A stretch of 64,000 nucleotides of DNA, from NCBI GenBank assembly GCA_963693055.1, contig OY843751.1, positions 864,001 to 928,000 of the forward strand, written 5' to 3'. The notes beneath the pieces were generated by a model that worked only from the letters and a program-made list of their open reading frames with translations, had not been told where the DNA came from and did not search any database. The position numbers and the translations under genes are program-made. Shown here one piece after another: positions 6,236 to 59,167 of this stretch. The stretch comes from a bacterium (lineage in GTDB: Bacteria; Zhuqueibacterota; Zhuqueibacteria; Residuimicrobiales; Krinioviventaceae). The first letter of the stretch is position 1. Every line of letters begins with the position of its first letter.

Positions 6236-6263
6236 TCTGGTATTTTGACTTGGAGAAACGGGA

Positions 6264-6698
6264 TTGAACAGGAAAAAGGAAAATATTGAGCTGATGGAAA
6301 TCGTCAGTAAACCTGAAAATATTAATCAGGTTGAAGCAAGAACCGAACATCTGGCTAAAGAATTGGGCTTTAATGAAGATGATTGTGTAAGCTTGGGGAT
6401 TGCTGTAACCGAAGTCGTTGCAAATGCAATAACGCATGGCAATAAAAGGGATCAAAACAAAAAAGTTAAAGTTAAATTTGTTTTTACTGACAAGGTTTTC
6501 GAAATACACATCAGAGATCAGGGACCCGGCTTTAAACCGGATTCCATAGATGATCCTTTAAAACCTGAAAATTTGTTAAAAGAAAGTGGACGAGGTATTT
6601 TTATTGTTAGATCTTTGATGGACAAGGTTGAATATAACTTTTTTAAAGATGGTAGTGAAGTTGTCCTAATTAAAAACATTCCTTCCCCCAAAAAGTGA
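6264..6698 (+). CDS. Anti-sigma factor / Ser kinase RsbW (HATPase_c_2)
   Basis: EVVANAITHGN, DQGPGF and ESGRGIFIVRSLMD motifs; GGAG RBS before TTG. Confidence 0.9.
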   Translation: MNRKKENIELMEIVSKPENINQVEARTEHLAKELGFNEDDCVSLGIAVTEVVANAITHGNKRDQNKKVKVKFVFTDKVFEIHIRDQGPGFKPDSIDDPLKPENLLKESGRGIFIVRSLMDKVEYNFFKDGSEVVLIKNIPSPKK

Positions 6699-7900
6699 TT
6701 GGTAACATATTGAAAAATTTGGTGCAAACTTTTTACCTGAATATATTTTTTCTGTTTGTATTGTGTATTGGTCAGGTTTTTGGTCAATTTGGATATGAAA
6801 AATTTGATGATGACCCTTATACAGAATACAAGCCTATTGATTTTTTCTCCCAACCCTATTACAATCGGGTAGAGGGAGTTGTATTACATGGCGGTGTTTT
6901 TTTACGCCAGGTACCCGTTTTACCCATCGTTACCAGTGTAGAACTTGCATTTGCAACCCGAACAAACAGCTGGCATTACAATTTTGGCTTGCAGCAATGG
7001 TTGTTTACCAATAGACGGCGTATGTTGTTGCGTTTGAATTTTTTTCAAGAAACACGCACAAATGACTCCTGGAAAATTGGGCGTATGGAAAATTCTCTTG
7101 CAGGTGTGTTCATGCATGAAGATTTTCATAATCATTATGCTGTAAAGGGATTTAGTATTGCCGCGGATCAAAAAGTGTTTCGCAGGAATTTATTAAGAAT
7201 TATTTATTCTCAGCATCGATACTCTAGTATGCCTGTTAATACCAGTTTTGCCGGTTCTTTGTTTGACTGGTCAAAATCTTATGCACCTAATCCTGCAATT
7301 ACGGAAGGGGATGAGCATAGTGTTCAGGTGAGGATGCTGATTGATGAACGTGATAATGCGTTTTTCCCAACAAGTGGATTTTATTTTGAAGGAGTTTATG
7401 AACGTACTTTTGGAGATTTTGAAACCAATGGTATCTTTATAAATTCTGTAATTTATTATCCTACAATCAATACACAGAAATTTATTCTGGTGGGTAACCT
7501 GGGTTTACGTAAAGGCAGCTTGGCTCGTCAACATTTGATGACAATTGGAGGGATAGGTAGTCTGCGTGCTTTTCCGGACAATTACCACATTGGTCAAAAT
7601 CTGGTCATGTACCGAATTGTGTACCACTTTGGCGGGTATTTTTTTCAAAAATCTCCGTTCAAATACATGCCTACCAGTGATGCTGCTTCTTTTGCTGTTT
7701 TTTGGGAAAGCGGAAATGCCTGGTATGCCGACAAGCCCAAAAGACGAATATATCATGGTATTTTTAAACCCCAACTTTTAGGTGACGCGGGAATGTCATT
7801 GTTGTTAGCTGATGGTATTTTACGTGTGGATATTGCTCGCCAATTACTGAATGGTGATGGAGACTGGCGTTTAACTTTTAGACTTTTTAACAAACTTTAG
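6695..7900 (+). CDS. Omp85/BamA-TamA family outer-membrane protein (no clear POTRA domain)
   Basis: YNRVEG, IDERDNAFFPTSG, IGGIGSLRAF and GILRVDIA barrel motifs. Confidence 0.75.
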   Translation: MIGNILKNLVQTFYLNIFFLFVLCIGQVFGQFGYEKFDDDPYTEYKPIDFFSQPYYNRVEGVVLHGGVFLRQVPVLPIVTSVELAFATRTNSWHYNFGLQQWLFTNRRRMLLRLNFFQETRTNDSWKIGRMENSLAGVFMHEDFHNHYAVKGFSIAADQKVFRRNLLRIIYSQHRYSSMPVNTSFAGSLFDWSKSYAPNPAITEGDEHSVQVRMLIDERDNAFFPTSGFYFEGVYERTFGDFETNGIFINSVIYYPTINTQKFILVGNLGLRKGSLARQHLMTIGGIGSLRAFPDNYHIGQNLVMYRIVYHFGGYFFQKSPFKYMPTSDAASFAVFWESGNAWYADKPKRRIYHGIFKPQLLGDAGMSLLLADGILRVDIARQLLNGDGDWRLTFRLFNKL

Positions 7901-7906
7901 GCATTT

Positions 7907-9223
7907 ATGCGTTTTACCTTTTTCTCAATAATTTTGTTTCTCTTGCTCGTTAGCTGTACTTATTCTCAGGATTCTCAGCTTGATGATTTGGATGAAGAAT
8001 TTGAATCATTAATGATCTTGGGATTTGATGTGATTGGAAATACCTATACCAAAGACATTGTGATTACCCGCGAGTTGAAAATGCAGATAGGTGAACTTTA
8101 TGAAGAGGATCGTCTAATTGAAGACCAGAAGCGTATTCAAAATCTTAATCTTTTCAGTCGGGTCGAAATAGTTCCGGTATTTAATCCGGATGGTGTCATT
8201 ATACAGATCCTGGTATCTGAACGCTGGCATATTTTCCCATACCCTATTTTGTACAGAAACGAAAGGGATTGGAGTAAACTTTCTTATGGGGCCGGAATTT
8301 TTCATGATAATTTTAGAGGTTTGCGTAACTTTGTCAATACTTCTTTTTGGTTTGGCTACAACCCCGGTATGGATGTTTATTACTCGAATCCCTGGTTTGG
8401 CGGCAAGCACAAGCTGAATTACAAGTTTTCGGCATATTCCAGAACCATTCGAAGCAAGGGGCTGGCCTATGATCGTTTTGATGAAAAACATCATGGAGCT
8501 ACATTAACCTTGGGCAAGCGATGGGGATACCATCTTTATTTATCCATGTCTCTGGGGTACAGACAGGTATCTTTGCCGACCGAGTACCGGTTTTTAAATT
8601 ATTCCAATAGTAAAACAGATAGACTACCTTCCGTTGGTTTTGCTATCAAATACGATAAACGTGATTTGTGGGAATATCCTAAAAGTGGATTCTTTGCTGA
8701 GTTATATGTTAATAAAATTTCAAACGCATCATATATTGATTATTTAAGATATGGAGCCGATTTACGGAAATATTTTAATGTGTTCAAAGATGTTTCTATT
8801 GGTTTTTATGGACGTGCTGATTTGTCAACCGGCAGTGTTCCGTATTATGACAAGATTTATCTGGGTTACGCCTACCGCATTCGCGGCGAGTTTGATACCC
8901 GTATGGAAGGAGATAACAGAGCCATTGGGCGAGTAGAGTTGCGTTTCCCCATTATTCCTATAAAATATTTTGATTTATCAGAGCAGGGTTATGATTTTGG
9001 ATCTTACAGTAATAATTTACCATTTGGCTTAAGCGGAGGTTTGTTTGTTGATTCTGGTACAACTTGGTTTAAAAGTCAAAGCATTACTGATCAAGCCCGT
9101 TTAAAGGGTTTTGGCCTGGGTCTGCATTTTCATGTTCCATATGTACAATTGCTGCGAGTAGAATATGCATGGAATTCAGATTTTGAACCGCAGTTTATTA
9201 CTGATATAGGAGTTGCATTTTGA
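7907..9223 (+). CDS. Omp85/BamA-TamA family protein with one POTRA domain
   Basis: GNTYTKDIVITRELK POTRA, NFRG, YDKRD...PKSG, IRG loop and C-terminal IGVAF. Confidence 0.85.
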   Translation: MRFTFFSIILFLLLVSCTYSQDSQLDDLDEEFESLMILGFDVIGNTYTKDIVITRELKMQIGELYEEDRLIEDQKRIQNLNLFSRVEIVPVFNPDGVIIQILVSERWHIFPYPILYRNERDWSKLSYGAGIFHDNFRGLRNFVNTSFWFGYNPGMDVYYSNPWFGGKHKLNYKFSAYSRTIRSKGLAYDRFDEKHHGATLTLGKRWGYHLYLSMSLGYRQVSLPTEYRFLNYSNSKTDRLPSVGFAIKYDKRDLWEYPKSGFFAELYVNKISNASYIDYLRYGADLRKYFNVFKDVSIGFYGRADLSTGSVPYYDKIYLGYAYRIRGEFDTRMEGDNRAIGRVELRFPIIPIKYFDLSEQGYDFGSYSNNLPFGLSGGLFVDSGTTWFKSQSITDQARLKGFGLGLHFHVPYVQLLRVEYAWNSDFEPQFITDIGVAF

Positions 9224-27518: not shown

Positions 27519-28226
27519 ATGGCTCATAAAGATACTAGTGTAGGAACCCTGGGGGCAGTAGTCAAAGACAATGAAACCGGCGAACTATTGTTGCTATCCA
27601 ACAACCATGTCTTTGCTAATTGTAATCGGGCAATGCCAGGAGATATTATTATTCAACCCTGTAAAGCAGATGGTGGAAATATTAAAGCTGATGCATTTGG
27701 TCGATTAGAAAGATTTATACCTTTAAAGATATCTAATTCAAACCATTCAGGTATATTGGAATCCTTTGGATGCAAAACAAGGGACTATATAACACTTTTT
27801 TTAGGACTTTGGAATACGGAATATTTTAGAACAAAGTATGGCAACAAAGTTGACGCAGCCGTAGTAATACCTAAAGATAAAAGTGAGATCTCTTTCCATA
27901 TTCCTGAAATTGGGCCGGTTAAGGGCGTATCAGAGCCAGCGACAGGTATGCAGGTGCAAAAATATGGCAGATCTACAGGATTAACAATGGGAGCTGTTAA
28001 ATATACCCATATGGATATACGCGTTAATTACCCCGATGGTACATCTGTATGGCTTGTGGATCAGATCGTAACCTCTAAAATGTCTGAATTTGGAGATTCC
28101 GGTGCGTTATTGCTGGATATGCAAAACCGCGCATTAGGCTTGTTGTGCGGAGGATCTGAAAAAGTCTCTGTTTTTAGTCCTATACAAACGGTTCTCGAAT
28201 TATTGAATATTAGTCTGGTGATATAA
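27519..28226 (+). CDS. Trypsin-like (S1, NAL1-like) serine protease; homology appears to extend upstream of the ATG
   Basis: Triad motifs LSNNHV, VDAA and GDSG; KYGRSTGLT; upstream in-frame RIRPAYPGVS. Confidence 0.8.
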   Translation: MAHKDTSVGTLGAVVKDNETGELLLLSNNHVFANCNRAMPGDIIIQPCKADGGNIKADAFGRLERFIPLKISNSNHSGILESFGCKTRDYITLFLGLWNTEYFRTKYGNKVDAAVVIPKDKSEISFHIPEIGPVKGVSEPATGMQVQKYGRSTGLTMGAVKYTHMDIRVNYPDGTSVWLVDQIVTSKMSEFGDSGALLLDMQNRALGLLCGGSEKVSVFSPIQTVLELLNISLVI

Positions 28227-31782: not shown

Positions 31783-31810
31783 AAAAAACCCGCTTATTAG
31801 CGGGTTTTTT
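31781..31810. terminator. Bidirectional rho-independent terminator
   Basis: A8-CCCGCT-TATT-AGCGGG-T6 between convergent genes. Confidence 0.85.
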
Positions 31811-31818
31811 ATTATATA

Positions 31819-33201
31819 CTAATTAACCCTGTTGAAAACAAAGGGCAAGTTAACTGTAATTGAACCTTCTTTGATGGGTGGGAACTTTAGTCGTCTTACA
31901 ATATTCATCAACTCTCTTACAAAATCCTGGTTGTCAATTGTTGATTCAAGAATCTGAATATTGGATACACTACCATTGGCTTCAATAGTTACATCAAAAC
32001 TCACTTTACCTCTCAAATCAGGATTTGTGCGCAGGTACTTGTTATAAGTATACATAACACGACCCTGTTGTGAGTTAATGATTGACATAACAGATTCGGA
32101 TGTTCTTTGAGCTCTTGCCTCCTGAGATCCTCTCATACGTTGGGGTTGCTGAATGTTGACTTTGCCTTGTTTTTTCAAGTCAACAGTTTCAACGCCTTCT
32201 ACTTCAGAGAGCAGGTCATCAACACCGCCTGAAAGTCCAAAAGCCATTAGTTCATCAATTCCGTCACCGTCACCGGTGCCACCGCCATCTCCGGTACCAT
32301 TGCCTTTACCAATTTTGTTGCTCTTGGTCAAAGGTTTACTTCCAATAAGCTGGTCAAGTTCCTGAACAAAACCTTGCTCTATTAGAAAGTCAGCCGCAGA
32401 ACTAGAACTGCCAGAACTACCGGTACCCCCAATAAGTCCCAAAAGACCTTGAGCGTTAACCGGTTTAGGAGCGGGTTTGTCTGAACCGCCACTGCCACCT
32501 GGTTTGGGTTGTTCCTGTTGTTGTTCCTGTTCCTGCGTTGTTTCTTCTTCAGCTTCACCTTCTCCTGAACTTGTTGTAGCTACCATTTCGGTTTCAGGTG
32601 GTTGAGTTGGTTTCTTGATCATGAATCTTGCAAATCGTTCCGGAACCTTGGTTACATCGGGTGGTTCCTCTGGTGGAAGTTCATATCCTTTAAGTGAAAA
32701 ACCAATTATAATTTCAATACTGAAAAGGATAAGGAACAAAGATTTATATAATAAATCTTTGGTAAAAGTTTTGCCAATCGCCTTGTTCCAGGTGTAAAGA
32801 GGAAGCCCTTTCAGGGTTTCCGGCTGGTGGCCATCATAATTAAAAAAGATATCTGTATCTGATATTCTGAGAGAACCTGATCTGCCGTGTGTGAATTCTA
32901 AATTATAAAAATTACCTTTTTGAGGTAAAAGGTTGTGTACAAACAGATCATTAAAAGTAACTTTGGAACCTTTAAATTCAATTTCACCAGTCATTGTAGG
33001 TGAAATTTTCATGCTACAGGTGTTTTTTTTACATTCAATCAGAACATGCTTTTTGGGATAGGCATCGTCATATACTATGATATCATTATCCGGACTTCGA
33101 CCTATGGTAAGCTTGTCATTTGGCCCAAAATAACGCTGAGTAACGCGACCACCCTGAACAATTTTGGCTTCTAATATAGAACTATTTCGTTTTATTGTCA
33201 T
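31819..33201 (-). CDS. GltG/AgmX-PglI-like protein: FHA-like N-terminus, TM helix, Gly-rich linker, TonB-C-like domain
   Basis: LTIGRSPDND (FHA-like), single TM, PERFARF, GLLGLIG and YNKYLRTNPDLRGKV...LKFP...NLPFVF. Confidence 0.8.
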   Translation of the reverse strand: MTIKRNSSILEAKIVQGGRVTQRYFGPNDKLTIGRSPDNDIIVYDDAYPKKHVLIECKKNTCSMKISPTMTGEIEFKGSKVTFNDLFVHNLLPQKGNFYNLEFTHGRSGSLRISDTDIFFNYDGHQPETLKGLPLYTWNKAIGKTFTKDLLYKSLFLILFSIEIIIGFSLKGYELPPEEPPDVTKVPERFARFMIKKPTQPPETEMVATTSSGEGEAEEETTQEQEQQQEQPKPGGSGGSDKPAPKPVNAQGLLGLIGGTGSSGSSSSAADFLIEQGFVQELDQLIGSKPLTKSNKIGKGNGTGDGGGTGDGDGIDELMAFGLSGGVDDLLSEVEGVETVDLKKQGKVNIQQPQRMRGSQEARAQRTSESVMSIINSQQGRVMYTYNKYLRTNPDLRGKVSFDVTIEANGSVSNIQILESTIDNQDFVRELMNIVRRLKFPPIKEGSITVNLPFVFNRVN

Positions 33202-33249
33202 GTATAATATCTATTTTATTTATATCGGGTTTCAACGAATTTGGGTTTA

Positions 33250-33762
33250 CTATTCTATTTGGTTCACTGCAAGCAGCATATTGTTGTAACCAACACTACC
33301 GCAAGTCAACATGATACGTTTGACCAGTTCAAATGTAAGATCACGGTCGCCCTGGATCGTAATATTACCAGTAAAACCGCCCTGGTCTGAAATTGAACCT
33401 ATACCTTCAGAAATTGTACGAAGTTTGGTCAATTCATCTTTTAAGGGATTGATGACGAGTAATTCATCATTTATAATGTTTTCAAGTTTTTCTATTGGAC
33501 GTCCATCAACCAGTATCCATTCCTGAGTAATTGCTATAACGGATGTGACTTTGGGTTGCATTTGTGATGTAGATTCAGGCAATTTCAGATCTTTGGTAAC
33601 AGTCATGATCTGACCTTCTGCACTGTAGCTCTTTAATAAAAACACCAATAGAATGGTAAACATGTCTATCATTGAAGTCAATTTCAAATTGAATGTACCA
33701 CGCTTGGTCCGTTTTGTACCGGTTGCAAGCAATGGTATTGTTTCATGTTCTTCTATCTTCAT
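33250..33762 (-). CDS. ExbD/TolR family protein (AglS-like)
   Basis: LTSMIDMFTILLVFLLKSY TM with conserved Asp; LKLPES; IQGDR. Confidence 0.88.
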   Translation of the reverse strand: MKIEEHETIPLLATGTKRTKRGTFNLKLTSMIDMFTILLVFLLKSYSAEGQIMTVTKDLKLPESTSQMQPKVTSVIAITQEWILVDGRPIEKLENIINDELLVINPLKDELTKLRTISEGIGSISDQGGFTGNITIQGDRDLTFELVKRIMLTCGSVGYNNMLLAVNQIE

Positions 33763-33778
33763 GGTATTATTCTCTTTC

Positions 33779-34246
33779 TTAGCCGGAAATAGAAATATTG
33801 GGAAAACCGGATTCCCTGCATCTGTCCATCACCTGAATAATTATGTGATACAGGATTGCGTCTTCTGGTGAGATTAATATATCTTCAGAATCCGGATATT
33901 TTTCTTTAATTGTGTTCAACTGGGTGGTTAATCCCTGCCAGTTGAAATCATTATTGCTTTTTTCTAATTTATCAAGTTTAAGATCAGGACTATTGAGCTC
34001 AAAACCGGTTTCACTGATCTTTAATATATTTAAAACCGTACTTTTGGGTTTCTCTGCCGTTGCAGTCTGGCCGGGTTTATCTAAACTCGGTAAAGACAAT
34101 TCCATAACGGCAATACGAACAAATACTGCCGTTAACAACATGAACGGAATCAGTATCAAAAAGATGTTCATTACAGCCGTCAGGTTTAATTCTGTTTCTT
34201 CAGCATGACCTTTAAGACGACTGCCCATGGATTGTTTTAAATTCAT
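33779..34246 (-). CDS. ExbD/TolR family protein (AglQ-like, TM Asp replaced by Asn)
   Basis: ELNLTAVMNIFLILIPFMLLTAVF; IKEKYP; IIQVMD. Confidence 0.85.
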   Translation of the reverse strand: MNLKQSMGSRLKGHAEETELNLTAVMNIFLILIPFMLLTAVFVRIAVMELSLPSLDKPGQTATAEKPKSTVLNILKISETGFELNSPDLKLDKLEKSNNDFNWQGLTTQLNTIKEKYPDSEDILISPEDAILYHIIIQVMDRCRESGFPNISISG

Positions 34247-34249
34247 ATA

Positions 34250-34870
34250 TTATTTCTCCGCTGTCATGAACCTGAACAAACGGGCGACATTTTCATTAAT
34301 TTCATCAATTAATTCATTGGTTTTTTCTTGAAGATAGGTAAAACCAATCAAACAGGGGATAGCTGAGATGATACCAAATGCTGTGGTATTCATCGCGATA
34401 GCAATACCAGAAGTAAGCAATGCTGCTTTGTCAGCTGCGTCAGCGTGAGCAACCGCGGCAAACGCACTGATCAATCCAAAAATTGTTCCCAACAAACCTA
34501 GCAGTGTAGATACGTTTGCAATCATTGCCAAATAGTGGGTACGTTTTTCTAATTTAGGTATTTCTACCATTGCCGCAAGTTCCATAGCATTTTGAATGCT
34601 TTTTGGCGAGTTGTTAATTTCATTTAAACCTGCTTTTGCAATGTTTGGAAGTGCTGCGTTAGAGATGTTGCAATATTCTATAGCCCGGTTAACATTACCG
34701 CTTTTAATTAGTTCTGCAATTTTATTTACAAACAATTCTGAATCAATACGATTTTTGAATTGTATAAAAATTACACGTTCAATAATGGTAACCAGCCCGA
34801 GAAGCAGCGCGAACAAGATTACAAACATAACCGGTCCACCACCCATAAAAAATCTAATAATACTGTCCAA
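34250..34870 (-). CDS. MotA/TolQ/ExbB proton channel (AglR-like)
   Basis: NVSTLLGLLGTIFGLI and GIAIAMNTTAFG; AGGAGG before TTG start. Confidence 0.92.
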   Translation of the reverse strand: MDSIIRFFMGGGPVMFVILFALLLGLVTIIERVIFIQFKNRIDSELFVNKIAELIKSGNVNRAIEYCNISNAALPNIAKAGLNEINNSPKSIQNAMELAAMVEIPKLEKRTHYLAMIANVSTLLGLLGTIFGLISAFAAVAHADAADKAALLTSGIAIAMNTTAFGIISAIPCLIGFTYLQEKTNELIDEINENVARLFRFMTAEK

Positions 34871-34954
34871 GGAAACCTCCTTAATGTTATTTAGAAGCGC
34901 GAAAAATTATCTTGAGAAATATAAAAAAAAAGGAAAATAATTTCAACTTTTTTA

Positions 34955-35356
34955 CTACCAGGGAATATAATCTTTTCTATCAACTGTAGGATCTGTAGTG
35001 ATCTTTGTTTGTATACGCCCCCTTTTTTCTACCGTTCGAAAGATTTCTTTAAAAAATGAATGTTCTATTTGAATATCGTCAATATCAGGAGTGGAGCCAG
35101 GTAAAATAAACATGGCTTGTGGTTTTTCCAATTGACCAACGACTTCAATTTTGTCTATAAAAAGTTTTACATCTGAATCATCTAGTGTGGGGGCACTATC
35201 ATTTATTAAATTTTGTGCATTTTGTGCCTGTAATGTAGAATCATTTGAAAATTCCTGCAATAGTAACTCGTTGGAATTTTGTGCGAATAACAATACGGGA
35301 AGTGTTATTGATGCAATTACAATATTGTATTTGATAAATGATTTAATATTCTTCAT
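34955..35356 (-). CDS. Small secreted protein, GltF/CglF-like
   Basis: Signal peptide + IEVVGQLEKPQAMFIL...SFFKEI motif; position immediately upstream of the exbB-like gene. Confidence 0.6.
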   Translation of the reverse strand: MKNIKSFIKYNIVIASITLPVLLFAQNSNELLLQEFSNDSTLQAQNAQNLINDSAPTLDDSDVKLFIDKIEVVGQLEKPQAMFILPGSTPDIDDIQIEHSFFKEIFRTVEKRGRIQTKITTDPTVDRKDYIPW

Positions 35357-35358
35357 GG

Positions 35359-38283
35359 TTAACCTGCTGTTTCCTGTGCTACACTTAATTCTTTATTAGG
35401 TTCGGCTTGAACTTTTTGAGAATCGGCGCTCTGTGTTAAAGATTCAATTCTTTTTTTACTTTCCGTAACCCAAATATTATCAATACTATTTGCCTCAGCT
35501 TGTTCAATATTTCTTTTGTATGTTTCTAATGCCTGGGTTTTGTAAGGCTCTGCTTTTTCCCGAAGCATGTCTGCATACATTGTTAGCTGTTCCTCTGTCA
35601 ATTCATCAGGAGGTGGCGACTCTACAAATGCTCTAAAAAACTCTTCAAAAGCCATGCCAATTTTATGAGTAGATGCTGTACTCCAGTCAGCCACCTGATA
35701 TTCTAGTGCGCTCTTGTAAGCACCCAAAACTTTTTGAAGGTTTTTGACTTTTAACTGTAAATTGGTTTTAAGTGGTGGAACCAGTTCAATTTTTTGAAAC
35801 GGTGTATAATAAATTTCACCAATCATAAATTGAGCTTGTGCAGCAAAATAATTGTCTGCAAATTCACCACTGTTTGATATGGTTTGATAATTTTCAATTG
35901 TTTTTTTAAAATATTCTTCTGCTGCTGTAAAATCTTTGACCTTGTAATTCATGTCGCCAATCTTATACAAACATTCAAGCAACTCATCACCTGGTTCAGG
36001 ATATGTAGTTATATACCGCTCATAATACGATCTTGCGGAATACCAATCTTCAAGTGTTTCATAATTATAAGCTGCATTTCTAATGGCATTTTTGTGATAT
36101 TCAGAGTCAGAATAATTATCTGCCAGCAGGATATAATCATTTGCTGCAAGTGTCCAGTTTTGTGTGCTTTCACGAATGCCTGCGGCTTTGTAAAGTGCTT
36201 CATCAGCCATTTCAGATTCCGGGAACAATTTAAAGAATTGTTCCAGAGCCAGAGCTGCTTTATCCGGTTGTTCACCTTGCTGGAATTGGATAGCAGATTC
36301 GAATAGTGCTCTTTCTCTAAATTCCGGGTTTGATGAAGTAGTTACTATTGATGCCAGCAGATTAGCAGCTTCAAGAGGTTTACCTTCCTGATTCAATGCT
36401 TCGGCAATTTTAAAATTTGACGAAGAAGCCATCATTTCCGCTTTTTGTAAATAACGTGTAGAATCTGGAAAGGATTGTACAATATTATCGAACCAAATTT
36501 CTGCTTCATGATAGAGTTCAGCATCATAGTAACATTGTCCTGCATTCATTGCAGAGAGCAGTCTGTATGGCCTCTTGTCACCCAATTCAATAACTTTTTT
36601 ATAAATTTCTATGGCGGGTAGATAATATTTCAAAGAGTGCATGATCTCGCCATATTTCATATACACCTGATCCAGTAAATTACTTTCAGGGAACATGAGA
36701 ACAAAATCATTACTCGAAATTAACAGATTTTTCTCTACACCTGTATTGGTGTTAAATGTCAATGTGTCAGGTGAATTCAAAAAGTTGGCTATATCAACTG
36801 ATCCACCGGCAGTTGTAGAGTCGGTAAGTAATTGATAATAACTTAAAATTCTATTATAAGCGGCTTGTTCCTTGTATTCTGTTTTCGATAAAGAATCCCG
36901 CTTTACTACGCTGTAATAAGATTCAGCGGCATTATAATAATCGTTAATTTCGTAATAGCATTCAGCAAGATAATAGTTGATCTTGACAGCATCATCTGCT
37001 GTGGAAAATTTTTCAAGGTATTCTTTGTATTTATCAATCGCGGTTTGAAAGCTGTTAATATCAGCAGATTGCTGAGCTTCCGCCTGGTAAAATGTACCTA
37101 AATAAACCAAAGATTTTTTTGTTATATCAAGACCAGTGTTTTGTACGGTATCGGCCTGATTTGTTTGCCATTCACTACCCGGCCCAAGATACGTTACCAG
37201 CTTCTCTCGGGTTTTGTTGGCACCTTCAATATCCTCATCCAGTTCATAACTTTCGATAATTTTTTGATATATGTTTGGTGCGTCACTATAGTAGGGATAA
37301 ATATCAAGCAGAACGTTCAAGATCGCAATGGATTCTGCATAATAGTTACGTTCGTGGTACAAGTCATAGATTTTTAAAAGAATAGGGAGTGTATAATCTT
37401 TATCTTTGTGATTGATCAGAAAATTATGTGCAGCAGAGGGGCCGCCAAACTCGGTAAAGCAGCTTGAAATATAATATATAGCTTCTGTTCTAAGGTCTGC
37501 CTTACTTTTGGTAAATACCTGGGTTTTTGCTTTATCAATAAGTGAAATATCTTCAATGAGGTAGAGGAATGTGCTGATGGCATCGGAATAGTTGTTTAAA
37601 TTATAATAAGACCAACCCAGTTTATAAAGGCTCATATCAAAATAAGGATTGCTCCACTCATCCAGCAGTTCTTTGTAATGGGATATAGCGGTTTTGTAAT
37701 CTCTTTGAGAAAAATAGTATTCACCAATTCTAAAGTGTGCTTCAAAGGAAATGGGAGATTCCGGATGATTGGCTATAATGCTTTCAAAATAATCTTTAGC
37801 CCGAAGTTTATCTCCCTGCTGAAAATAGGAAATTCCCAGCTTGTATAAAATTTTATCTTTAAACTTGGAAGCAGGGAACTCTGTTAAAAGCCGGTTACAG
37901 TACTCTATGGTTTTATTCATGTCCAACTGGGGCAATGAGGGCTCGGTAGCAAGTTCACCATTGTCAAACCTTCCCAGATCAGTTTCGTATTGCTGCATTT
38001 GAAGCTGATAATTGATCTGAGATCTTTGTGTGTACAATTCCGCAAGCTGAAACATGATGGTTGATGCAAACGGACCCTGTGGGTATTTCTTTAGCAAGGT
38101 CTCGTGCTCAGAAATGATAGCATCCAATTTGCCTATATCTTCACCCGTATCCTCGATGATGGCATTTACATAGGCGCTTTCCTGGGCAATAACATTGATT
38201 GACACCCCAAGAACGAGCAAACCCACTATGAATGCAACTAGATAGTTTTTATATAAATTTGAAATTTTCATAATTTTTAACAT
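35359..38283 (-). CDS. Large periplasmic TPR protein, GltD/AgmU-like
   Basis: Signal peptide, many TPRs (EAHFRIGEYYF, LYKLGWSYY) and C-terminal PLKTNL..K..AY..A..Y.VADWSTASTHKIG..PDELTEEQ..Y...L.EKAEP. Confidence 0.8.
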   Translation of the reverse strand: MLKIMKISNLYKNYLVAFIVGLLVLGVSINVIAQESAYVNAIIEDTGEDIGKLDAIISEHETLLKKYPQGPFASTIMFQLAELYTQRSQINYQLQMQQYETDLGRFDNGELATEPSLPQLDMNKTIEYCNRLLTEFPASKFKDKILYKLGISYFQQGDKLRAKDYFESIIANHPESPISFEAHFRIGEYYFSQRDYKTAISHYKELLDEWSNPYFDMSLYKLGWSYYNLNNYSDAISTFLYLIEDISLIDKAKTQVFTKSKADLRTEAIYYISSCFTEFGGPSAAHNFLINHKDKDYTLPILLKIYDLYHERNYYAESIAILNVLLDIYPYYSDAPNIYQKIIESYELDEDIEGANKTREKLVTYLGPGSEWQTNQADTVQNTGLDITKKSLVYLGTFYQAEAQQSADINSFQTAIDKYKEYLEKFSTADDAVKINYYLAECYYEINDYYNAAESYYSVVKRDSLSKTEYKEQAAYNRILSYYQLLTDSTTAGGSVDIANFLNSPDTLTFNTNTGVEKNLLISSNDFVLMFPESNLLDQVYMKYGEIMHSLKYYLPAIEIYKKVIELGDKRPYRLLSAMNAGQCYYDAELYHEAEIWFDNIVQSFPDSTRYLQKAEMMASSSNFKIAEALNQEGKPLEAANLLASIVTTSSNPEFRERALFESAIQFQQGEQPDKAALALEQFFKLFPESEMADEALYKAAGIRESTQNWTLAANDYILLADNYSDSEYHKNAIRNAAYNYETLEDWYSARSYYERYITTYPEPGDELLECLYKIGDMNYKVKDFTAAEEYFKKTIENYQTISNSGEFADNYFAAQAQFMIGEIYYTPFQKIELVPPLKTNLQLKVKNLQKVLGAYKSALEYQVADWSTASTHKIGMAFEEFFRAFVESPPPDELTEEQLTMYADMLREKAEPYKTQALETYKRNIEQAEANSIDNIWVTESKKRIESLTQSADSQKVQAEPNKELSVAQETAG

Positions 38284-38294
38284 TATTAATGATA

Positions 38295-39743
38295 CTAGTT
38301 ATGTATTTCTGTGCGTTTCAAAAATAATGCCCTTGATTTACCATATTCGGCAAATGCTCTCCAATCCTGTCTTTCTTCTTTCACTTTGATCATTTTTTTC
38401 ATAGTGTCCATTTCAGCCAGCATACTTGAGAAATTCTGACGTTCTGTTTGAATTTGTTTCATCAATTCATTACGTGTCTGATTGATCTCGTGTTTTTCAA
38501 GCTGCAAATAATCTGGCGCTTCTGTATCAGGAGTTAACTGGATAAGGTTGAGCAATTTTGTTTCAAGCACCAGTAAATCCATTTTAATTGATTCCAGTCT
38601 TCTTTCCTGAATATGTATACTGGATTCAACTTCATTGACTATCATGGGTACAAGCTCACGTTTTGGCAAGCTGTTTACCAAATATTCGTACACTTTAAGG
38701 GCTTCATCATATAACCCTAATTTTAAATAACATCTTCCCAGCAAAAAGAAACCTTCCTGGGTATTTTCGTCTTCTTTCGGCATTGATACAAGATCCGTTA
38801 ATGGATCAACCGCAAGTTGATATTGTTTCATCTTGGTAGCAGCCCAACCCGCAGCTAATAGCGCACTTTTGTAATGGTTGTGTTTTGAGGAAACCGCTCT
38901 AAAATTTCCCAAAGCCCTCTGGTAATACCCCAATTCATAATAGATATAGCCAAGTGTTAGATAGGTTTCATCTACAATGTTCCTGAAATCATCATTCACA
39001 ATTGGTATACGAAGAATTGAATTGAGTGAATTAACGGCTTCGCGAACCTGGCGCAAGCGCAGGTACGAAAGTGCTGCTGTATATTGTGCATATGGAGAAT
39101 AGGGGTTACCTTTATCAATCTCGGTTAATATTTCAATAGCTTTGTCATAATCGAACAGGTTGTAATAAGAAAGACCTGCGTAATATCTTGAAGCATCAAG
39201 AATATCTCTTGAGGGATTACCTTTGGTAATGACTTTATAAAACTCGATACATTTTTCAAGATTGCCCTTGTCATACTCGATACGTTGTAAACCCAACAAT
39301 GCTCTGGGCAAATGAGGACTGGCAATATATTTTTTTACAAGGAATTTGAAAATCTTTTTCGATCCATCTAGCAACCCTATTTCAAATAAACAATCACCCA
39401 ATGTAAATACAACCTGATCGATCTTGGAATAGCTGGGATAAAAGTCCATAAGGATAATCAGATTTCGAGAGCTTTCCCAATAATCTCCATCCATGAATAA
39501 TTTTTCAGCCTCAAGATAAAGCTTTTCAGCCGCACGCTCAAGCTCTTCTTTTTCTGCTCTTTGCAGCCGGGCTTCTTTATCTTCAGTTTGAGAATATACA
39601 GCGGTTGGGAGAAACATTCCCCCAAGGATAATAGCTATTATTACTGCAATCCATATTATGGACTGTTTGGGTTTATCTAAAAGAGTCATTCGATTCTTGC
39701 TCAAGTTGTTTATTATATAAATATATGCCTGTTTTTGCAGCAT
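38295..39743 (-). CDS. TPR protein with C-terminal coiled coil (GltC-like position)
   Basis: Signal/TM segment, TPRs (YLTLGYIYY, ALLAAGWA); start may be 39689. Confidence 0.75.
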   Translation of the reverse strand: MLQKQAYIYIINNLSKNRMTLLDKPKQSIIWIAVIIAIILGGMFLPTAVYSQTEDKEARLQRAEKEELERAAEKLYLEAEKLFMDGDYWESSRNLIILMDFYPSYSKIDQVVFTLGDCLFEIGLLDGSKKIFKFLVKKYIASPHLPRALLGLQRIEYDKGNLEKCIEFYKVITKGNPSRDILDASRYYAGLSYYNLFDYDKAIEILTEIDKGNPYSPYAQYTAALSYLRLRQVREAVNSLNSILRIPIVNDDFRNIVDETYLTLGYIYYELGYYQRALGNFRAVSSKHNHYKSALLAAGWAATKMKQYQLAVDPLTDLVSMPKEDENTQEGFFLLGRCYLKLGLYDEALKVYEYLVNSLPKRELVPMIVNEVESSIHIQERRLESIKMDLLVLETKLLNLIQLTPDTEAPDYLQLEKHEINQTRNELMKQIQTERQNFSSMLAEMDTMKKMIKVKEERQDWRAFAEYGKSRALFLKRTEIHN

Positions 39744-39807
39744 TATTTAGAGTTATAATGTATGAATATACTCACATTAAACATTATATACGTAAATATT
39801 TTTTCAT

Positions 39808-40842
39808 TTATTCAGTTTTGGGTTTCTTTTCTTCTTCAAGTTGTTTTCTCAGTTCTTCAAGATCTTTGACAACTTTTTTACGCTTTTGTTGTATCTGGTC
39901 AAGTTCTTTACGTTCTTCCTGGCGTTGATCTTCAATTTCTCTTTCTTTACGGGTTTTGCCGGCAAAGATATTGGTACGGTATGTCACACCAAACATGACT
40001 TTCCAATTCGCATAATCTTTAAGAAACGGATTTGCACCCAGGTTTTCATTTTCGGGAGTGAATCTACCCAATTCAAAATCAGCTGCCAGATCACAAATCA
40101 AATGCCAGGGACCAACAAATCTAAAACCCTGGGTGAAGCGGATAAAGTTTTGACTTGGAGTTATATCTGCATTATTGATAAACATTTCACCTGTAAATTC
40201 AGAGTAAAACAGAGATGATCTTACCGGGAATTTGAAGCCGAGACCGCCAATGATTTGATCTTTTTCCGAAGAAAAATAAGCATCGGACCAGTTATTGTCT
40301 AGGTATCCCAAATTGATTGAAAGCTTCATTGGAAATGTTTTGATATAATCTTTGAAATCCAAAGTTGATAACAACATCAAACCCCAACCCATCGCATCGT
40401 CAGTATAAGATTCAAATTGAACATTGTGATTCAATGCAGTTGGAAATTTCACAAAACCAGCAAGCCCCAATTGTACCATAGAACCGTAACGGGGAATATG
40501 ATATTTTACATATAATCTTGAATCACCAATGGGTCCCCAGGTATGCTTTTGATCATCCTGATAGGGAGTAAGTTGTGCAAATACTTCAAATTGTTCAGAA
40601 AGGCTTGTTGTAATTCCCAAATGTAAAGCATGGTCTTCACTAAAACTTTCATTATCACCGGAACCATAAAAAGAATACACAGGATTAATCGCCAAAACTC
40701 CCGGGTGTATTGTCTCAGCTTCTATGATTCTGAATAAACCTTTGCCGCCAAAATAAGATACTTGAGCAAAACTATTCATTGAAAAAAGTATAATGAAAAC
40801 AACAAATAAGGTTCTGATATTTGTCAATTTATTCCTGTTCAT
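39808..40842 (-). CDS. Outer-membrane beta-barrel-like protein with C-terminal coiled coil
   Basis: Signal peptide (SFA-Q), GKGLFRIIEAETI, GDSRL, amphipathic strands and charged helical tail. Confidence 0.65.
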   Translation of the reverse strand: MNRNKLTNIRTLFVVFIILFSMNSFAQVSYFGGKGLFRIIEAETIHPGVLAINPVYSFYGSGDNESFSEDHALHLGITTSLSEQFEVFAQLTPYQDDQKHTWGPIGDSRLYVKYHIPRYGSMVQLGLAGFVKFPTALNHNVQFESYTDDAMGWGLMLLSTLDFKDYIKTFPMKLSINLGYLDNNWSDAYFSSEKDQIIGGLGFKFPVRSSLFYSEFTGEMFINNADITPSQNFIRFTQGFRFVGPWHLICDLAADFELGRFTPENENLGANPFLKDYANWKVMFGVTYRTNIFAGKTRKEREIEDQRQEERKELDQIQQKRKKVVKDLEELRKQLEEEKKPKTE

Positions 40843-40964: not shown

Positions 40965-43121
40965 CTACAACATCCCAAACTTTTTGCGCAAAAACCATTC
41001 CAATGAAAGCAAAGTTACAATTGTTATCAGAATTATTTTATGGTTCCAAACATCAACTTGAAATGTATTTGAAATTTCCCGGGTTTGCCCTTTGATTTCA
41101 GAAAAGAGTATATTTAATGAATCCGGGGGTATATATTTTCCGCCACTTTTTAGCGCTAGTTCTTTTAAAACAGGAATTTGGAGACGTGTGTTTGCCAACT
41201 CTGAATTATAGTTGCCCATACTAAACAGAGCAATGTTTTGCTTGTCAGGGGGCAAGATTGGTGTTTTAAGCTTTAGCTGATAATCACCAGATTCGTCCAG
41301 GTATATCGTTTTTGTAAATTGGTTTTCTTTATTTGGATCCAGTTGCATGTATTCGGTTTCATTTTTGTGATCGAGCTGTAGGGTAATTTCATTTTTGTAA
41401 TTGCCTATTGCGTCAGGATTAATAATGCTGGCATGTATGTGTACAGGATCTCCAAAATTGTAATTCTTTTTATCGGTAGAGATTTGCACCCAATTGGTTT
41501 CTTTTTTTACTTCAAGCCATTGTAAAGAGTTTAGAATAAAGTTTTCGTAAACCTTGTCTTCATTCTCCACACCTCTCATCATCAAGTCCCATCGCCATGT
41601 ATCATATGCCATTAGCGCTTCGGATTTATGATTGTTTTCGCTTCTTACAAGGACTAGCGGAACGACTAGTTTTTCTGAGGAGCCTGTAGCCGCTTGCGCC
41701 AGTACCTGTGTTCCCGGCCACATATTGGTTATACTTACATCTGAAAAGGCCGGTGGTAGCTTTTGCCAGTTGTAATAATTATCTCCCGATGCGTTTGTGC
41801 CAAGCATGATTGGGTGGCTTTTACCATTGGCTGTTAAGGTTGGTGAAACCTGGGTGAACTTTATTTGGTTTACAGGTAATTTAAAAGGTAGAAATTCTTG
41901 AAAATTGCTCAATTGATTAAAATCTATTTTGGGACCAGTTATGAGTAAGAGTGGCTTTTTATCTGTTCTTAACCGTTCAGCTATCTGATTGGTTATTGAT
42001 TTGCTGCTGCTGGTAACAGGATAATTTAACAAAATAAATAGATCTGTTTCTTTCAAGATTGTGGATACATCTTGATCAGTTTTATAAAAGCTGCCTTCTT
42101 TTTTTTGTACGAGTTTGGTTATTTGATAACGATCTGTATTTTGAATATATCTGCTGATAAAAGAGATATCTGTAGTTGGCCCGCCTGCAACAAGGGTTAC
42201 GTTTTGTTTTGCTTTTAATACTTCATGATAAAGTGTATATGTATTGTTTTGATGTAATAGTTCATCTGACTGCTGAGGGATTGATACCATTACTTTGTGT
42301 TGCCCTTCTTTTTCCGGAGTATAACTCATTTCAAGATTAATTTCGGAAGGAGAGGAGGGAATTGTTATGGTTTGGGTTTGTTGTGATTTCTCATCAATGT
42401 ACAAGGTTACTGGAATTACCAGATTGCTAAATCCTGTGGTACGGATAGTGATAATAAATTCTGCCGGCTCATTTATATATGTAAAGGGATTGGTTTGTAC
42501 ATAGTCTATACTAATATCCCGAATGGGATTAGCAGAACCAATACCCACAGGATATACAGGGATTGATGATTCTGTGGAAAATCGGGCAGGGCTGCCGCCT
42601 TGATTGTAATTACCATCGGTATAAATTACAATTGCAGACAGGTTATTATTTTCCTGATCTTGCTTGATATAGTTTAAAGCCTTGCTGATATTTGTAACAT
42701 CCCCCGAGAAATCTTGAATGATTGCTTTATTCCCTTCGACAGGTTGAATATCACCAGAGAATGTATAATATTTTAACTGGAATTTTTCTAACAGTTGATC
42801 AAAAACAGGATTGTTTGCAGTTTTTTCTAAAAGGCTAACGCGACTACCATTGGCATCTTTTATTGACATACTTTTACTGTTATCAATTGCAATACCAATA
42901 ACCGGTTCAAGCTGTTTGTTTGTATTGTAAAACAGTTGACCTTGAAAAAGCACAACAAATAATAAGAAAAAAACAAGCCCGCGTAAGAATGCCAATACAA
43001 GTTTAGAGTACAGAGGAATAGCCGGAACTGTTTTACGATAAACATATAGCGTAAATGCTAAAGAGATTATAAGGGTAATGATAAAAATTTCAATGTGTTG
43101 TATAAACAAGCTATAATGCAT
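40965..43121 (-). CDS. Membrane-anchored vWA-domain protein (vWA + Ig-like + GATase-like)
   Basis: Two N-terminal TMs, IDNSKSM (MIDAS-like), TDG, TWRW and C-terminal EWFLRKKFGML. Confidence 0.8.
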   Translation of the reverse strand: MHYSLFIQHIEIFIITLIISLAFTLYVYRKTVPAIPLYSKLVLAFLRGLVFFLLFVVLFQGQLFYNTNKQLEPVIGIAIDNSKSMSIKDANGSRVSLLEKTANNPVFDQLLEKFQLKYYTFSGDIQPVEGNKAIIQDFSGDVTNISKALNYIKQDQENNNLSAIVIYTDGNYNQGGSPARFSTESSIPVYPVGIGSANPIRDISIDYVQTNPFTYINEPAEFIITIRTTGFSNLVIPVTLYIDEKSQQTQTITIPSSPSEINLEMSYTPEKEGQHKVMVSIPQQSDELLHQNNTYTLYHEVLKAKQNVTLVAGGPTTDISFISRYIQNTDRYQITKLVQKKEGSFYKTDQDVSTILKETDLFILLNYPVTSSSKSITNQIAERLRTDKKPLLLITGPKIDFNQLSNFQEFLPFKLPVNQIKFTQVSPTLTANGKSHPIMLGTNASGDNYYNWQKLPPAFSDVSITNMWPGTQVLAQAATGSSEKLVVPLVLVRSENNHKSEALMAYDTWRWDLMMRGVENEDKVYENFILNSLQWLEVKKETNWVQISTDKKNYNFGDPVHIHASIINPDAIGNYKNEITLQLDHKNETEYMQLDPNKENQFTKTIYLDESGDYQLKLKTPILPPDKQNIALFSMGNYNSELANTRLQIPVLKELALKSGGKYIPPDSLNILFSEIKGQTREISNTFQVDVWNHKIILITIVTLLSLEWFLRKKFGML

Positions 43122-57151: not shown

Positions 57152-58327
57152 ATGGTGAAAAATCAATTGATAAAACGACTGTGGTTTTTGCTCCTTGTGT
57201 ATATCATTTCAATTGTCCCTAGTGGTGCATTTGCACTTGATGACAAAATTGGTGTAGGCATTAAAGCTGGAATGGGTCGCCTAGAGGGGGATTGGAGCAG
57301 CCCCGGACTTTCATTCAATGGTTCTGTTTTTGCAAGTTACAGCCCGTTTCCATACTTTGCAATTAGTGGCGAGTTGGGTACCGGTTTTCTCAGAACCTCG
57401 GAAATATCAGACATCAGCAGGATTGATGCCGGCTTTGACAATGTAGATGATTACAATACAACATTTGTACCCTATGAATTGCAGGTACAGGTCAATCCTT
57501 TTCCATATTTTAAAATCAAGCCCTTTGCATTATTGGGGGTTGGTGGATTGTGGTTTAATTCAACCTATCAGGATGCTACAATTAATCTGGATGGTGTTGA
57601 ACAGAATTTAATGGATTCATATTTCAAGTTTGGTGGAGGTATTGAATATCCAATTGAGCCACAGATTTCGGTTATACTTGGCGCGGATTTTAGGCAAACC
57701 ATGACAGACCGACTTGAGCAATGGAAAAGTGGTGATGAGAACGATGGTATTATCTCTGTTTGGGCCGGAGTTACATATTATTTTCCATTAAAGAATAAGG
57801 ATGATCGTGATTTTGATAATATTCCATTATCTTTAGATGTGGACCCCATATATGCTGAAGATTTTAATGGATATCAGGACCACGATGGAAGACCCGAAAA
57901 TGGAGTGCCTGAAAATTTTGACTACAAAAAGCCCTTAGTAAAGCATAACCCTGTATTTAGAGCGCTTGAGGGCAGCAATCTGGAAATTAAAGCTGAAATT
58001 TATTCTACCACGCCTTTGAAAAGTATTTCTATTATGCACCGGGCAATAGGCAGTAAAAAATGGCAAGTAGTAGAGATGAGTCCGGAACCTAACAATATAT
58101 ATGTAGGTGAAATAGATAAATCATATTTAACCGGTGATGGGCTAGAATATTTTGTTGTTGCAGTAACCCGAGATTTACAAGGCATGGGGTATTCAGGATT
58201 ACCGAAGCGCCCTATCCAGGTTAAAATAGTAAAAAATGCTTCAAAATGGCGACTAGCCACCGGGGCGCTATCAGCGTTGAGCTGGGCAAGCGCTTTGTAT
58301 ATTATTCTAAGAAAACAAACCAATTAG
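57152..58327 (+). CDS. OmpA-like beta-barrel + TSP3-like linker + Ig-like domain + C-terminal hydrophobic anchor
   Basis: Signal peptide, about 8 strands ending AGVTYYF, DRDFDNIP..D.DP..AEDFNGYQDHDGRPE, VKHNP...LEYFVVA and TM+RK tail. Confidence 0.7.
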   Translation: MVKNQLIKRLWFLLLVYIISIVPSGAFALDDKIGVGIKAGMGRLEGDWSSPGLSFNGSVFASYSPFPYFAISGELGTGFLRTSEISDISRIDAGFDNVDDYNTTFVPYELQVQVNPFPYFKIKPFALLGVGGLWFNSTYQDATINLDGVEQNLMDSYFKFGGGIEYPIEPQISVILGADFRQTMTDRLEQWKSGDENDGIISVWAGVTYYFPLKNKDDRDFDNIPLSLDVDPIYAEDFNGYQDHDGRPENGVPENFDYKKPLVKHNPVFRALEGSNLEIKAEIYSTTPLKSISIMHRAIGSKKWQVVEMSPEPNNIYVGEIDKSYLTGDGLEYFVVAVTRDLQGMGYSGLPKRPIQVKIVKNASKWRLATGALSALSWASALYIILRKQTN

Positions 58328-58336
58328 GAGAGCGAA

Positions 58337-59167
58337 ATGAAGGCAAAGCAATATATTATTTTACTCGTGATGATGCTGAGTTTTTTCAGTGTACTGTTTC
58401 TGAGTTCATGTGCCGGTACTCGCCAGGAAGACAGCAGCTTTGAAAATGAGCTGTTTGGTGAAGATGAATTAGAAGGTATTGACGATATGGTCCTGAGCGA
58501 TTTAGACGCTTCTTCTGATGAAGATGAGGTTTTGCGTTTATTGGGTATATCTGAAGACAATAATGACAATACCCAATCGTTTTCACAATCGGAATACGCA
58601 GAAAGTACCAATGTTTCTACAAGACCCAGCGGTAATCTTGAAGAACAGGTCAATTATCTGGAAGATGAAGCGCAGCGTAAAGATATTGAAATGTCAAATC
58701 TGAAAGCAGACATTGCCGAACGTGAACGCCGTATTCAGGAACTGCAAACTCAACTTGCGCAAAATGGTGGTACATTGCCAAGTTCTGGTTCTGCAACCGG
58801 TAGTTTTAAAGGTCAGTATGAACAGGCTTTGAACAATTATCGTACAAGAAATTACCGTACAGCGATACAACAGTTTGATGTCATGTTGGCACAAAATGCT
58901 ACAAATACTCTGGTTGACAATTGCCAGTATTGGAAAGGTGAATGTTATTACGCGTTAAGCGATTATAACCAGGCTATTCTTGAATTCCAAAAAGTATTCA
59001 TGTATGGAGAATCCAACAAGATTGATGATGCACAATTGAAACTGGGATTATGTTATTTGCGATTGGGTGACAAGCAAAGATCAAGAACTGAATTTGAGAA
59101 ATTGATCTCAAATTATCCTGACAGTGAATTTGTTTCACGGGCACAAACCTATATGTCACGTTTATAA
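58337..59167 (+). CDS. CpoB/YbgF-like TPR lipoprotein
   Basis: LSSC lipobox, coiled coil, DNCQYWKGECYY and DDAQLKLG. Confidence 0.8.
   Translation: MKAKQYIILLVMMLSFFSVLFLSSCAGTRQEDSSFENELFGEDELEGIDDMVLSDLDASSDEDEVLRLLGISEDNNDNTQSFSQSEYAESTNVSTRPSGNLEEQVNYLEDEAQRKDIEMSNLKADIAERERRIQELQTQLAQNGGTLPSSGSATGSFKGQYEQALNNYRTRNYRTAIQQFDVMLAQNATNTLVDNCQYWKGECYYALSDYNQAILEFQKVFMYGESNKIDDAQLKLGLCYLRLGDKQRSRTEFEKLISNYPDSEFVSRAQTYMSRL

Follow-up and report, generated by a model that had tools for sequence, protein, structure and literature searches.

An Agl-Glt-type operon with a predicted single-aspartate stator and its own outer-membrane barrel in Zhuqueibacterota (candidate division KSB1)

A core set of Agl-Glt genes, comprising aglR, aglQ, aglS, gltC, gltD, gltE, gltG and one extra gene, was described in 2011 from some Gammaproteobacteria, Geobacter and Fibrobacter, and was thought insufficient for motility on its own, its function being given as unknown (PMC3169522). 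In the AlphaFold model of the Myxococcus machine, AglR5-Q-S sits on the GltG helix, the GltG linker lies on GltD, a strand of GltF is added to the TonB_C domain of GltG, and the GltF tail enters GltC, which lies under the outer-membrane barrels, all of these contacts being predicted (PMC11761067); the sister Nfs system moves surface polymer (PMC3858216). We describe here an operon of this family at 31819-40842 of a 64,000-nucleotide stretch (the window) of contig OY843751.1, part of a one-contig 6.5-Mb genome (assembly GCA_963693055.1) from candidate division KSB1, now Zhuqueibacterota. It resembles the 2011 core in having AglRQS, GltC, GltD and GltG in one locus, but lacks GltE, carries its own FapF/COG4313-like barrel, is near-universal in its phylum where the described core is patchy, and includes GltF, which the 2011 study reports only from Myxococcales and Bdellovibrionales (PMC3169522). 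Because no GltE was found, the sequence comparisons place the operon as a variant of the Agl-Glt core and not as the seven-gene core, and on its own it is a further member of a described but unexplained family. The initial annotation of this DNA had proposed a compact version of the core; a reduced core in a single locus is what we find, although it is short of GltE and such a core had been on record since 2011. No published description of the operon in KSB1 was found in the literature searched; a term search of the main text of the paper naming the phylum turned up nothing on motility, gliding or secretion (PMC11683472), and one survey took in a single genome of the Fibrobacteres-Chlorobi-Bacteroidetes (FCB) group (PMC9946355).

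The likeness to the M. xanthus Agl-Glt and Agl-Nfs machines (PMC11761067, PMC3858216) lies in orthologous motor and periplasmic parts and in the presence of MglA and MglB in the genome, whereas the KSB1 machine differs in having Asn at the AglQ Asp28 position, no Glu in the third transmembrane (TM) segment of AglR, one FHA-like domain, one 12-stranded barrel as against GltA, GltB and GltH, and all of its genes in one operon. The mglB-mglA pair lies at C1:5143902-5145011 (L180), unlinked to the operon, and is followed by a third roadblock-like gene. GltI and GltJ were not found, on indirect evidence: the largest tetratricopeptide repeat (TPR) match in the genome has 1225 aa, and a strong AgmX/PglI-type tail occurs in the genome only once, GltI and GltJ themselves not having served as queries. 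NCBIfam models for GltA, GltB, GltH, GltK and CglB had no match among the eight operon genes, and no sequence queries were made for these proteins. The genome search that the initial annotation had proposed recovered MglA/MglB and SprA, and did not recover GltI, GltJ or GldL/M/N, the Gld models having no positive control.

The eight co-oriented open reading frames are transcribed in the order first annotated, namely barrel, TPR, large TPR, small secreted protein, ExbB/TolQ, ExbD, ExbD and a protein with FHA, TM and TonB_C parts, with intergenic gaps of 64, 11, 2, 84, 3, 16 and 48 bp. Pfam-type matches to MotA/ExbB (2e-28) and to ExbD (7e-18 and 2e-11) give the motor genes the folds of the TonB-ExbB-ExbD and Tol-Pal systems, with which the operon also shares a TonB_C arm; it differs from them in its separate clade, in two unlike ExbD proteins with one Asp between them, and in having no receptor, TolB or Pal adjoining. 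As the initial annotation held, scans of window proteins (sets of 16, 25 and 2, a part of the window open reading frames) brought up neither a TonB-dependent receptor nor TolB or Pal. Two ExbD genes are not diagnostic by themselves, because an ordinary ExbB-ExbD-ExbD-TonB locus of this genome likewise has two. In an AglR tree of 34 rows, with 7 ordinary ExbB/TolQ rows as outgroup (no E. coli sequence among them), the proteins of this operon type (type I) and of a second KSB1 type (type II, below) group with deltaproteobacterial AglR and apart from the ordinary proteins with support of 100/99. An arrangement with type I and ordinary ExbB as one side is not rejected (p-AU 0.37), a result that leaves only the root of the Agl clade open, and by sequence the ExbB/TolQ gene is a member of the AglR clade and not of the ordinary TonB-ExbBD or Tol-Pal clades. 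A Myxococcus AglR query has the operon ExbB as its best match in the genome, and AglQ and AglS queries each match only their counterpart (7e-15 and 6e-28).

For the periplasmic parts, up to 28 of 80 Myxococcota-type loci were compared with KSB1 profiles by hhalign. This set is a paralogous Glt cluster of Archangium and its kin, not M. xanthus G1, and the genes of one such locus match GltC, CglF/GltF and GltG in NCBIfam, all below the cut-offs. The 974-aa TPR protein aligns with GltD over 881 columns (100%, 3.4e-80) and is the best genome match for an Archangium GltD query. The 133-aa protein, with a hydrophobic N-terminus and a conserved core DKIEVxGxLEKPQAxF, is the sole genome match for the myxobacterial GltF profile (97.4%, 1.4e-11); its Archangium partner matches the NCBIfam CglF model (8e-9), and a direct NCBIfam search gave 0 relevant matches among 20 members of the small protein. 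GltG matches an Archangium protein over its full length, as well as the NCBIfam gliding_GltG model below cut-off (7.8e-29) and the AgmX/PglI tail above it, and is laid out as an FHA-like domain, a TM helix at about 149-167, a Gly/Glu-rich linker and an AgmX/PglI TonB_C domain at 368-457. Phosphothreonine reading by the FHA-like domain is unlikely, since Pro stands in 24 of 26 copies at the position that we take to be the Ser of the phosphothreonine motif. Six of the genes are thus assigned by sequence to AglR, AglQ, AglS, GltD, GltF and GltG, and we regard the family identity of the operon parts as close to certain. The Agl-Glt assignment of the initial annotation is upheld by the placement of AglR and by the GltD and GltF matches.

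The remaining TPR protein is probably GltC. It scores against GltC paralogues at 99.1% and 6e-19, as against 1e-4 for GltD and GltE, and its gene precedes gltD as gltC does; the alignment covers the TPR part only, and an unrelated 1002-aa TPR protein of the same genome scores above it against the GltC profile. Its true start is probably a little later than listed. A stand-alone gltC paralogue, 43% identical, lies at C1:6512992-6514374 and is present in some close relatives too. As to GltE, there is no gene in the 2-bp gap between gltD and gltF, and elsewhere in the genome the GltE profile matches nothing but general TPR proteins. In the Archangium paralogue cluster at L042:872-11353, which lies directly behind mglB-mglA, the gene before gltC encodes a 247-aa secreted protein that belongs to no known family.

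The motor subunits are unusual in their membrane residues. Asp25 of ExbD from E. coli and Serratia aligns with Asn27 of AglQ and Asp33 of AglS, and Asn27 occupies the position of the essential Asp28 of Myxococcus AglQ, a 162-aa protein whose Asp28 falls in the same column. Since AglR is also without the ExbB-type Glu, having the non-acidic Ile158 at the ExbB Glu176 position, the alignments leave AglS Asp33 as the one membrane carboxylate of AglR/Q/S. The Asn is present in 15 of 15 aligned AglQ copies, in 20 of 20 operon copies across the phylum, in 12 further type II copies, and in the 120 homologues at the head of a list of 569, a sample skewed towards the query; the AglS Asp is likewise found in 15/15 and 20/20 copies, and both Asp33 and the two channel threonines retained by AglR, Thr129 and Thr163, are invariant in the copies aligned. 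By comparison, all four ordinary ExbD proteins of the same genome carry Asp, as do 10 of 11 distinct deltaproteobacterial AglQ proteins. Gammaproteobacterial Agl-Glt cores may also carry AglQ Asn.

A deltaproteobacterial metagenome-assembled genome contains two Agl loci, one (L121) with Asp in AglQ and Ala in AglS and the other (L135) with Asn in AglQ. By sequence, single-Asp stators recur in the Agl family, because one deltaproteobacterial locus has AglQ Asn and another AglS Ala, and the mirror case at L121 suggests that one Asp per stator is kept under selection. The strong conservation of the motor subunits (mean column identities of 74%, 55% and 69% for AglR, AglQ and AglS) argues against decay of the motor. 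In M. xanthus, AglQ D28N loses motor function, with gliding paralysed and sporulation blocked (PMC3858216), and the initial description of the machine as driven by the proton-motive force is less safe than it appeared, given the Asn at this position. A search of the literature on this AglQ residue found nothing relevant, most subscription papers being outside its coverage. The natural AglQ(Asn)/AglS(Asp) pair across a phylum bears on whether ExbBD/MotAB-type motors need two aspartates. Sodium coupling was also considered and is unsupported: AglR has Thr129, Thr162 and Thr163, but the same TT is present in the three ordinary ExbB proteins of the genome (PomA was not in the alignment), and the c-subunit is without the Na+ motif.

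The operon is widespread among relatives. In a survey of 133 phylum genomes at least 85% complete (including the unpublished G132 and G135, without which the conclusions are the same), a GltG-like gene was found in 131, with 105 at E<=1e-71, and this near-universal GltG looks like a housekeeping gene; a search for AglQ at E<=1e-14 detected it in 119 of the 133, and at least one of the genomes so missed (G059) does carry the gene. Forty relative loci were picked from GltG matches on long contigs in two sets of 20, and 32 of them (15/20 and 17/20) keep all eight genes in the same order, which supports an operon order beyond chance. One of the 32, L021 from the same genus, has frameshifts in gltD and gltF. 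The other eight comprise one locus without the barrel, four (family f2) that lack the FHA-like domain as well as the motor genes, and three of the second type. Family f2 (L037-L040; G019, G023, G029, G031, G037) keeps barrel-GltC-GltD-GltF-GltG, with the FHA-like domain replaced. Type II clusters have GltC of 830-1020 aa, GltD of 1430-1557 aa, no barrel, GltG without the FHA-like domain, and AglQ Asn; many genomes have one in addition to type I (13 clusters were read, three of them repeats of the earlier set), often directly behind the ATP synthase operon (loci L155-L157, L211-L223, L226 and L228-L230), and none is present in this genome. Named homologues of GltG are mostly from KSB1; the range outside KSB1 and Myxococcota is drawn from a few names (Calditrichaeota, Fibrobacter) and, for the barrel, from Atlas taxa. 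AglS and GltD had no match among plasmids.

Among the 36 other type I loci that were read, 35 begin with the barrel gene (36/37 counting L021, from 19/20 and 17/17 in the two sets). It has a signal peptide and a conserved N-terminal segment, and its AlphaFold model (pLDDT 78) has 12 strands and a C-terminal helix of about 42 residues. The N-terminal segment, of low confidence in the model, is likely a plug, and the helix a likely periplasmic coiled coil. A single VIA-align search, on which the fold comparison rests, places the model closest to FapF (Z 21.0, rmsd 3.0, 226 aligned), followed by COG4313 (Z 19.9, rmsd 3.3) and KdgM (Z 19.5). FapF and COG4313 share with it the 12-stranded barrel and N-terminal segment, but the identity is only 10-13%, the long helix is C-terminal, and the gene sits with a motor. 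There is no Pfam match (PF13557 in 0 of 34 members) and no sequence match in the PDB; in the Atlas, PF13557 (Phenol_MetA_deg) is found on 10% of one barrel cluster. In this genome the barrel has a single paralogue, whose gene comes immediately after PorU-like and PorV-like genes. Prediction of a barrel-GltC complex scored 0.17 against a mark of 0.32 and is counted neither for nor against.

We propose, with a probability of about one half, that the machine pulls on its own outer-membrane barrel and so releases or moves surface cargo, and that it does not serve gliding. A secretion-like role is favoured because the barrel is closest to the FapF secretion pore and because its paralogue follows PorU/PorV-like genes. 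The likely steps are drawn by analogy with the published Myxococcus model, every link of which has a KSB1 counterpart except that one barrel stands for three. AglR, AglQ and AglS would form a 5:1:1 stator in which the single AglS Asp33 would give a one-sided or reciprocating stroke, as against the two-site alternation of 5:2 rotors, with ion flow through this inner-membrane motor as the energy source for the pull. GltG would act as a TonB/TolA-like arm with its linker wrapped on GltD, and GltF as a detachable TonB-box, whose strand would join the GltG TonB_C domain and clip that domain to GltC. On the periplasmic side GltC would grip the barrel, one FapF-like barrel taking the place of GltA/B/H, and the pull would either unplug the barrel or shift it sideways together with its cargo, in the way that Nfs spreads the spore coat. 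What the ancestral Agl-Glt core does has been an open question since 2011, and this compact version, which brings its own barrel, reduces the number of possible answers.

Several observations weigh against this proposal. The D28N-type residue is natural in this AglQ, so the stator might not conduct, and two f2 genera are without AglQ (0/7) and AglS (0/5) while keeping the rest of the operon. The relative L036 has no barrel, nor do the type II clusters of the phylum within their operons. The COG4313 and KdgM uptake channels lie within 1.5 Z of FapF, so that import is possible. The myxobacterial comparison sets are from the paralogous cluster and not from M. xanthus G1 itself, and the lineage is uncultured.

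Another employment for the motor can be considered. The machine could supply the energy for an orphan type IX secretion system (T9SS) as a substitute for GldLM, pulling cargo-loaded PorV-type carriers off SprA. In Bacteroidota the removal of the carrier from SprA requires energy (PMC10994853; PMC12635249). The genome has SprA, PorU-like and PorV-like genes, with the barrel paralogue within the porU-porV run, and at least 150 matches to the secretion C-terminal domain (CTD; 150 scored of 264 candidates); GldL, GldM and GldN have no match in it, with models that lacked a positive control. Across the phylum, 132 of 133 genomes have SprA and none of the 133 gave a GldM match, an absence that is unproven as none of 14 control genomes matched the Gld models. 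In Ignavibacterium and Melioribacter only translocon parts of the T9SS are reported (PMC11705866). The Gld searches without a control count against this explanation, as do five genomes at least 90% complete that keep SprA without AglS or AglQ, and the co-occurrence says little where SprA and Glt are both near-universal. The core also occurs in Myxococcota and gammaproteobacteria that are not known to have a T9SS, and there is an alternative motor 5 kb from sprA, an ordinary TolA-like/ExbB/ExbD set with its Asp. We consider the T9SS role doubtful; if true, it would explain the export of a hundred or more CTD proteins in FCB lineages without GldLM. The paralogue behind the porU-like and porV-like genes, the nearby sprA and the TolA-like/ExbB/ExbD set lie at C1:5654765-5680656 (L178, L179). 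A linkage of type II clusters to sprA (about 20 kb, three genomes) was rejected as likely chance of neighbourhood, with ATP synthase and translation genes between.

Three further roles can be set against the proposed pulling of barrel and cargo. That the motor drives gliding or contact predation, as in Myxococcus and Bdellovibrio, is distinctly improbable in our view, as it has six or seven orthologous parts and an unlinked MglA/MglB pair in its favour, but the giant cytoplasmic TPR protein, a second AgmX/PglI protein and GltE were all not found, AglQ carries the paralysing residue, the genome has flagellin, and the core has been argued not to be sufficient (PMC3169522); surface motility and predation, both offered in the initial annotation, accordingly have little support. 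To the same slight degree we entertain a dedicated TonB-like uptake system that unplugs a COG4313-like barrel and so takes in a polymer or a hydrophobic compound, to which the nearness of the barrel to COG4313 and KdgM, the Phenol_MetA_deg lead from the Atlas and the TonB_C domain of GltG would point. No catabolic or transport genes are conserved beside the operon, however, a 12-stranded pore hardly needs two large TPR scaffolds, and the genome is already supplied with three ordinary ExbB/ExbD sets. Finally, the AglQ Asn, the missing Glu in AglR and the two genera without motor genes would fit a non-conducting stator that serves as a peptidoglycan-anchored tether, making the complex a static link between the two membranes, but the invariance of AglS Asp33 and the two channel threonines, and a mirror case at L121 that suggests selection for one Asp, make such a tether very improbable.

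The gltC gene is intact in the window, and in relatives it has an unusual A-run. It is split near model position 200 in 36 of 109 genomes with a match (two of the 36 unpublished), and the 27 splits that were read (L139, L141, L148, L149, L150, L153, L154, L158-L177) all have a run of A10-11 preceded by a codon for Leu, Phe or Ile, and in every one the reading goes on in the -1 frame, GC-rich loci included. Among the 32 in-frame copies that were read, the run is no longer than 7 A in 31, the window gene and its paralogue included, and one has A10 in frame. Only 9 A/T runs of 10 or more occur in 303 kb near split gltC, 8 of them at this site. At L149 the A10 form is not an assembly error, because it appears both in DNA reads, in a run at depth 161, and in one RNA run; another RNA run has one extra A, the in-frame form (one contig, from a different strain without same-sample DNA). 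Programmed slippage at this A-run in relatives is thus suggested, and only suggested because of the source of the extra-A library, with phase variation as the rival explanation. There is a precedent in Citrobacter tssM1, an envelope-machine gene subject to transcriptional slippage, which is similarly broken after about 11 A and could yield short and full-length proteins, although the protein and system are different and the gltC case concerns relatives only (PMC4256274). Among envelope machines, the gltC A-run is a clean candidate site of programmed slippage. The joint proposition, that the phylum runs its T9SS without GldLM by means of a Myxococcus-type motor with a single proton-carrying Asp, in which the level of full-length GltC is set by programmed slippage in about one third of genomes, is slightly more doubtful than the T9SS role taken alone.

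Table 1. Features of the operon and its terminator in the window
Feature	Coordinates	Strand	Basis
Outer-membrane barrel, 344 aa	39808..40842	-	AlphaFold model, VIA-align
GltC-like secreted TPR protein (probable GltC), 482 aa as listed	38295..39743	-	hhalign
GltD orthologue, 974-aa secreted TPR scaffold	35359..38283	-	hhalign and best genome match for Archangium GltD
GltF (CglF) orthologue, 133-aa secreted protein	34955..35356	-	hhalign and sole genome match
AglR, ExbB/TolQ-type stator, 206 aa, TTG start	34250..34870	-	domain match, alignment, tree
AglQ, ExbD-type, 155 aa	33779..34246	-	alignment, Myxococcus AglQ query
AglS, ExbD-type, 170 aa	33250..33762	-	alignment, Myxococcus AglS query
GltG, FHA-like N-terminus, TM, linker, TonB_C	31819..33201	-	domain and NCBIfam matches
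Putative intrinsic terminator hairpin between convergent genes	31783..31810	.	A-run on one side, T-run on the other

The hairpin listed in Table 1 is common to the end of the operon and to a convergent response-regulator gene. The bidirectional terminator annotated initially is plausible because of the flanking A-run and T-run and the convergent genes, although the program called it on the minus strand only. In the relative L149, two RNA libraries span the operon and fall off near its ends while DNA runs go on (contigs only), a weak hint of transcription as an operon-sized unit. Directly upstream of the operon, at 40965-43121, lies a gene for a 718-aa membrane protein with a vWA-like DxSxS motif; it was considered as a fixed part of the operon and rejected, as it adjoins the barrel in 15 of 20 loci within the order and in only 2 of 17 outside the order. 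On the opposite strand, 17 kb from the operon, is a CpoB/YbgF-like gene; at 57152-59167, after a mreC-pbp2-rodA-lgt run, an OmpA-type barrel gene is followed by a CpoB/YbgF-like TPR gene. At 4313-9223 there is a tandem pair of Omp85-family genes behind a 640-aa protein with no Pfam match, and at 27519-28226 a gene for a Nal1-like trypsin-family protease precedes a sensor kinase and a sigma-54 regulator.

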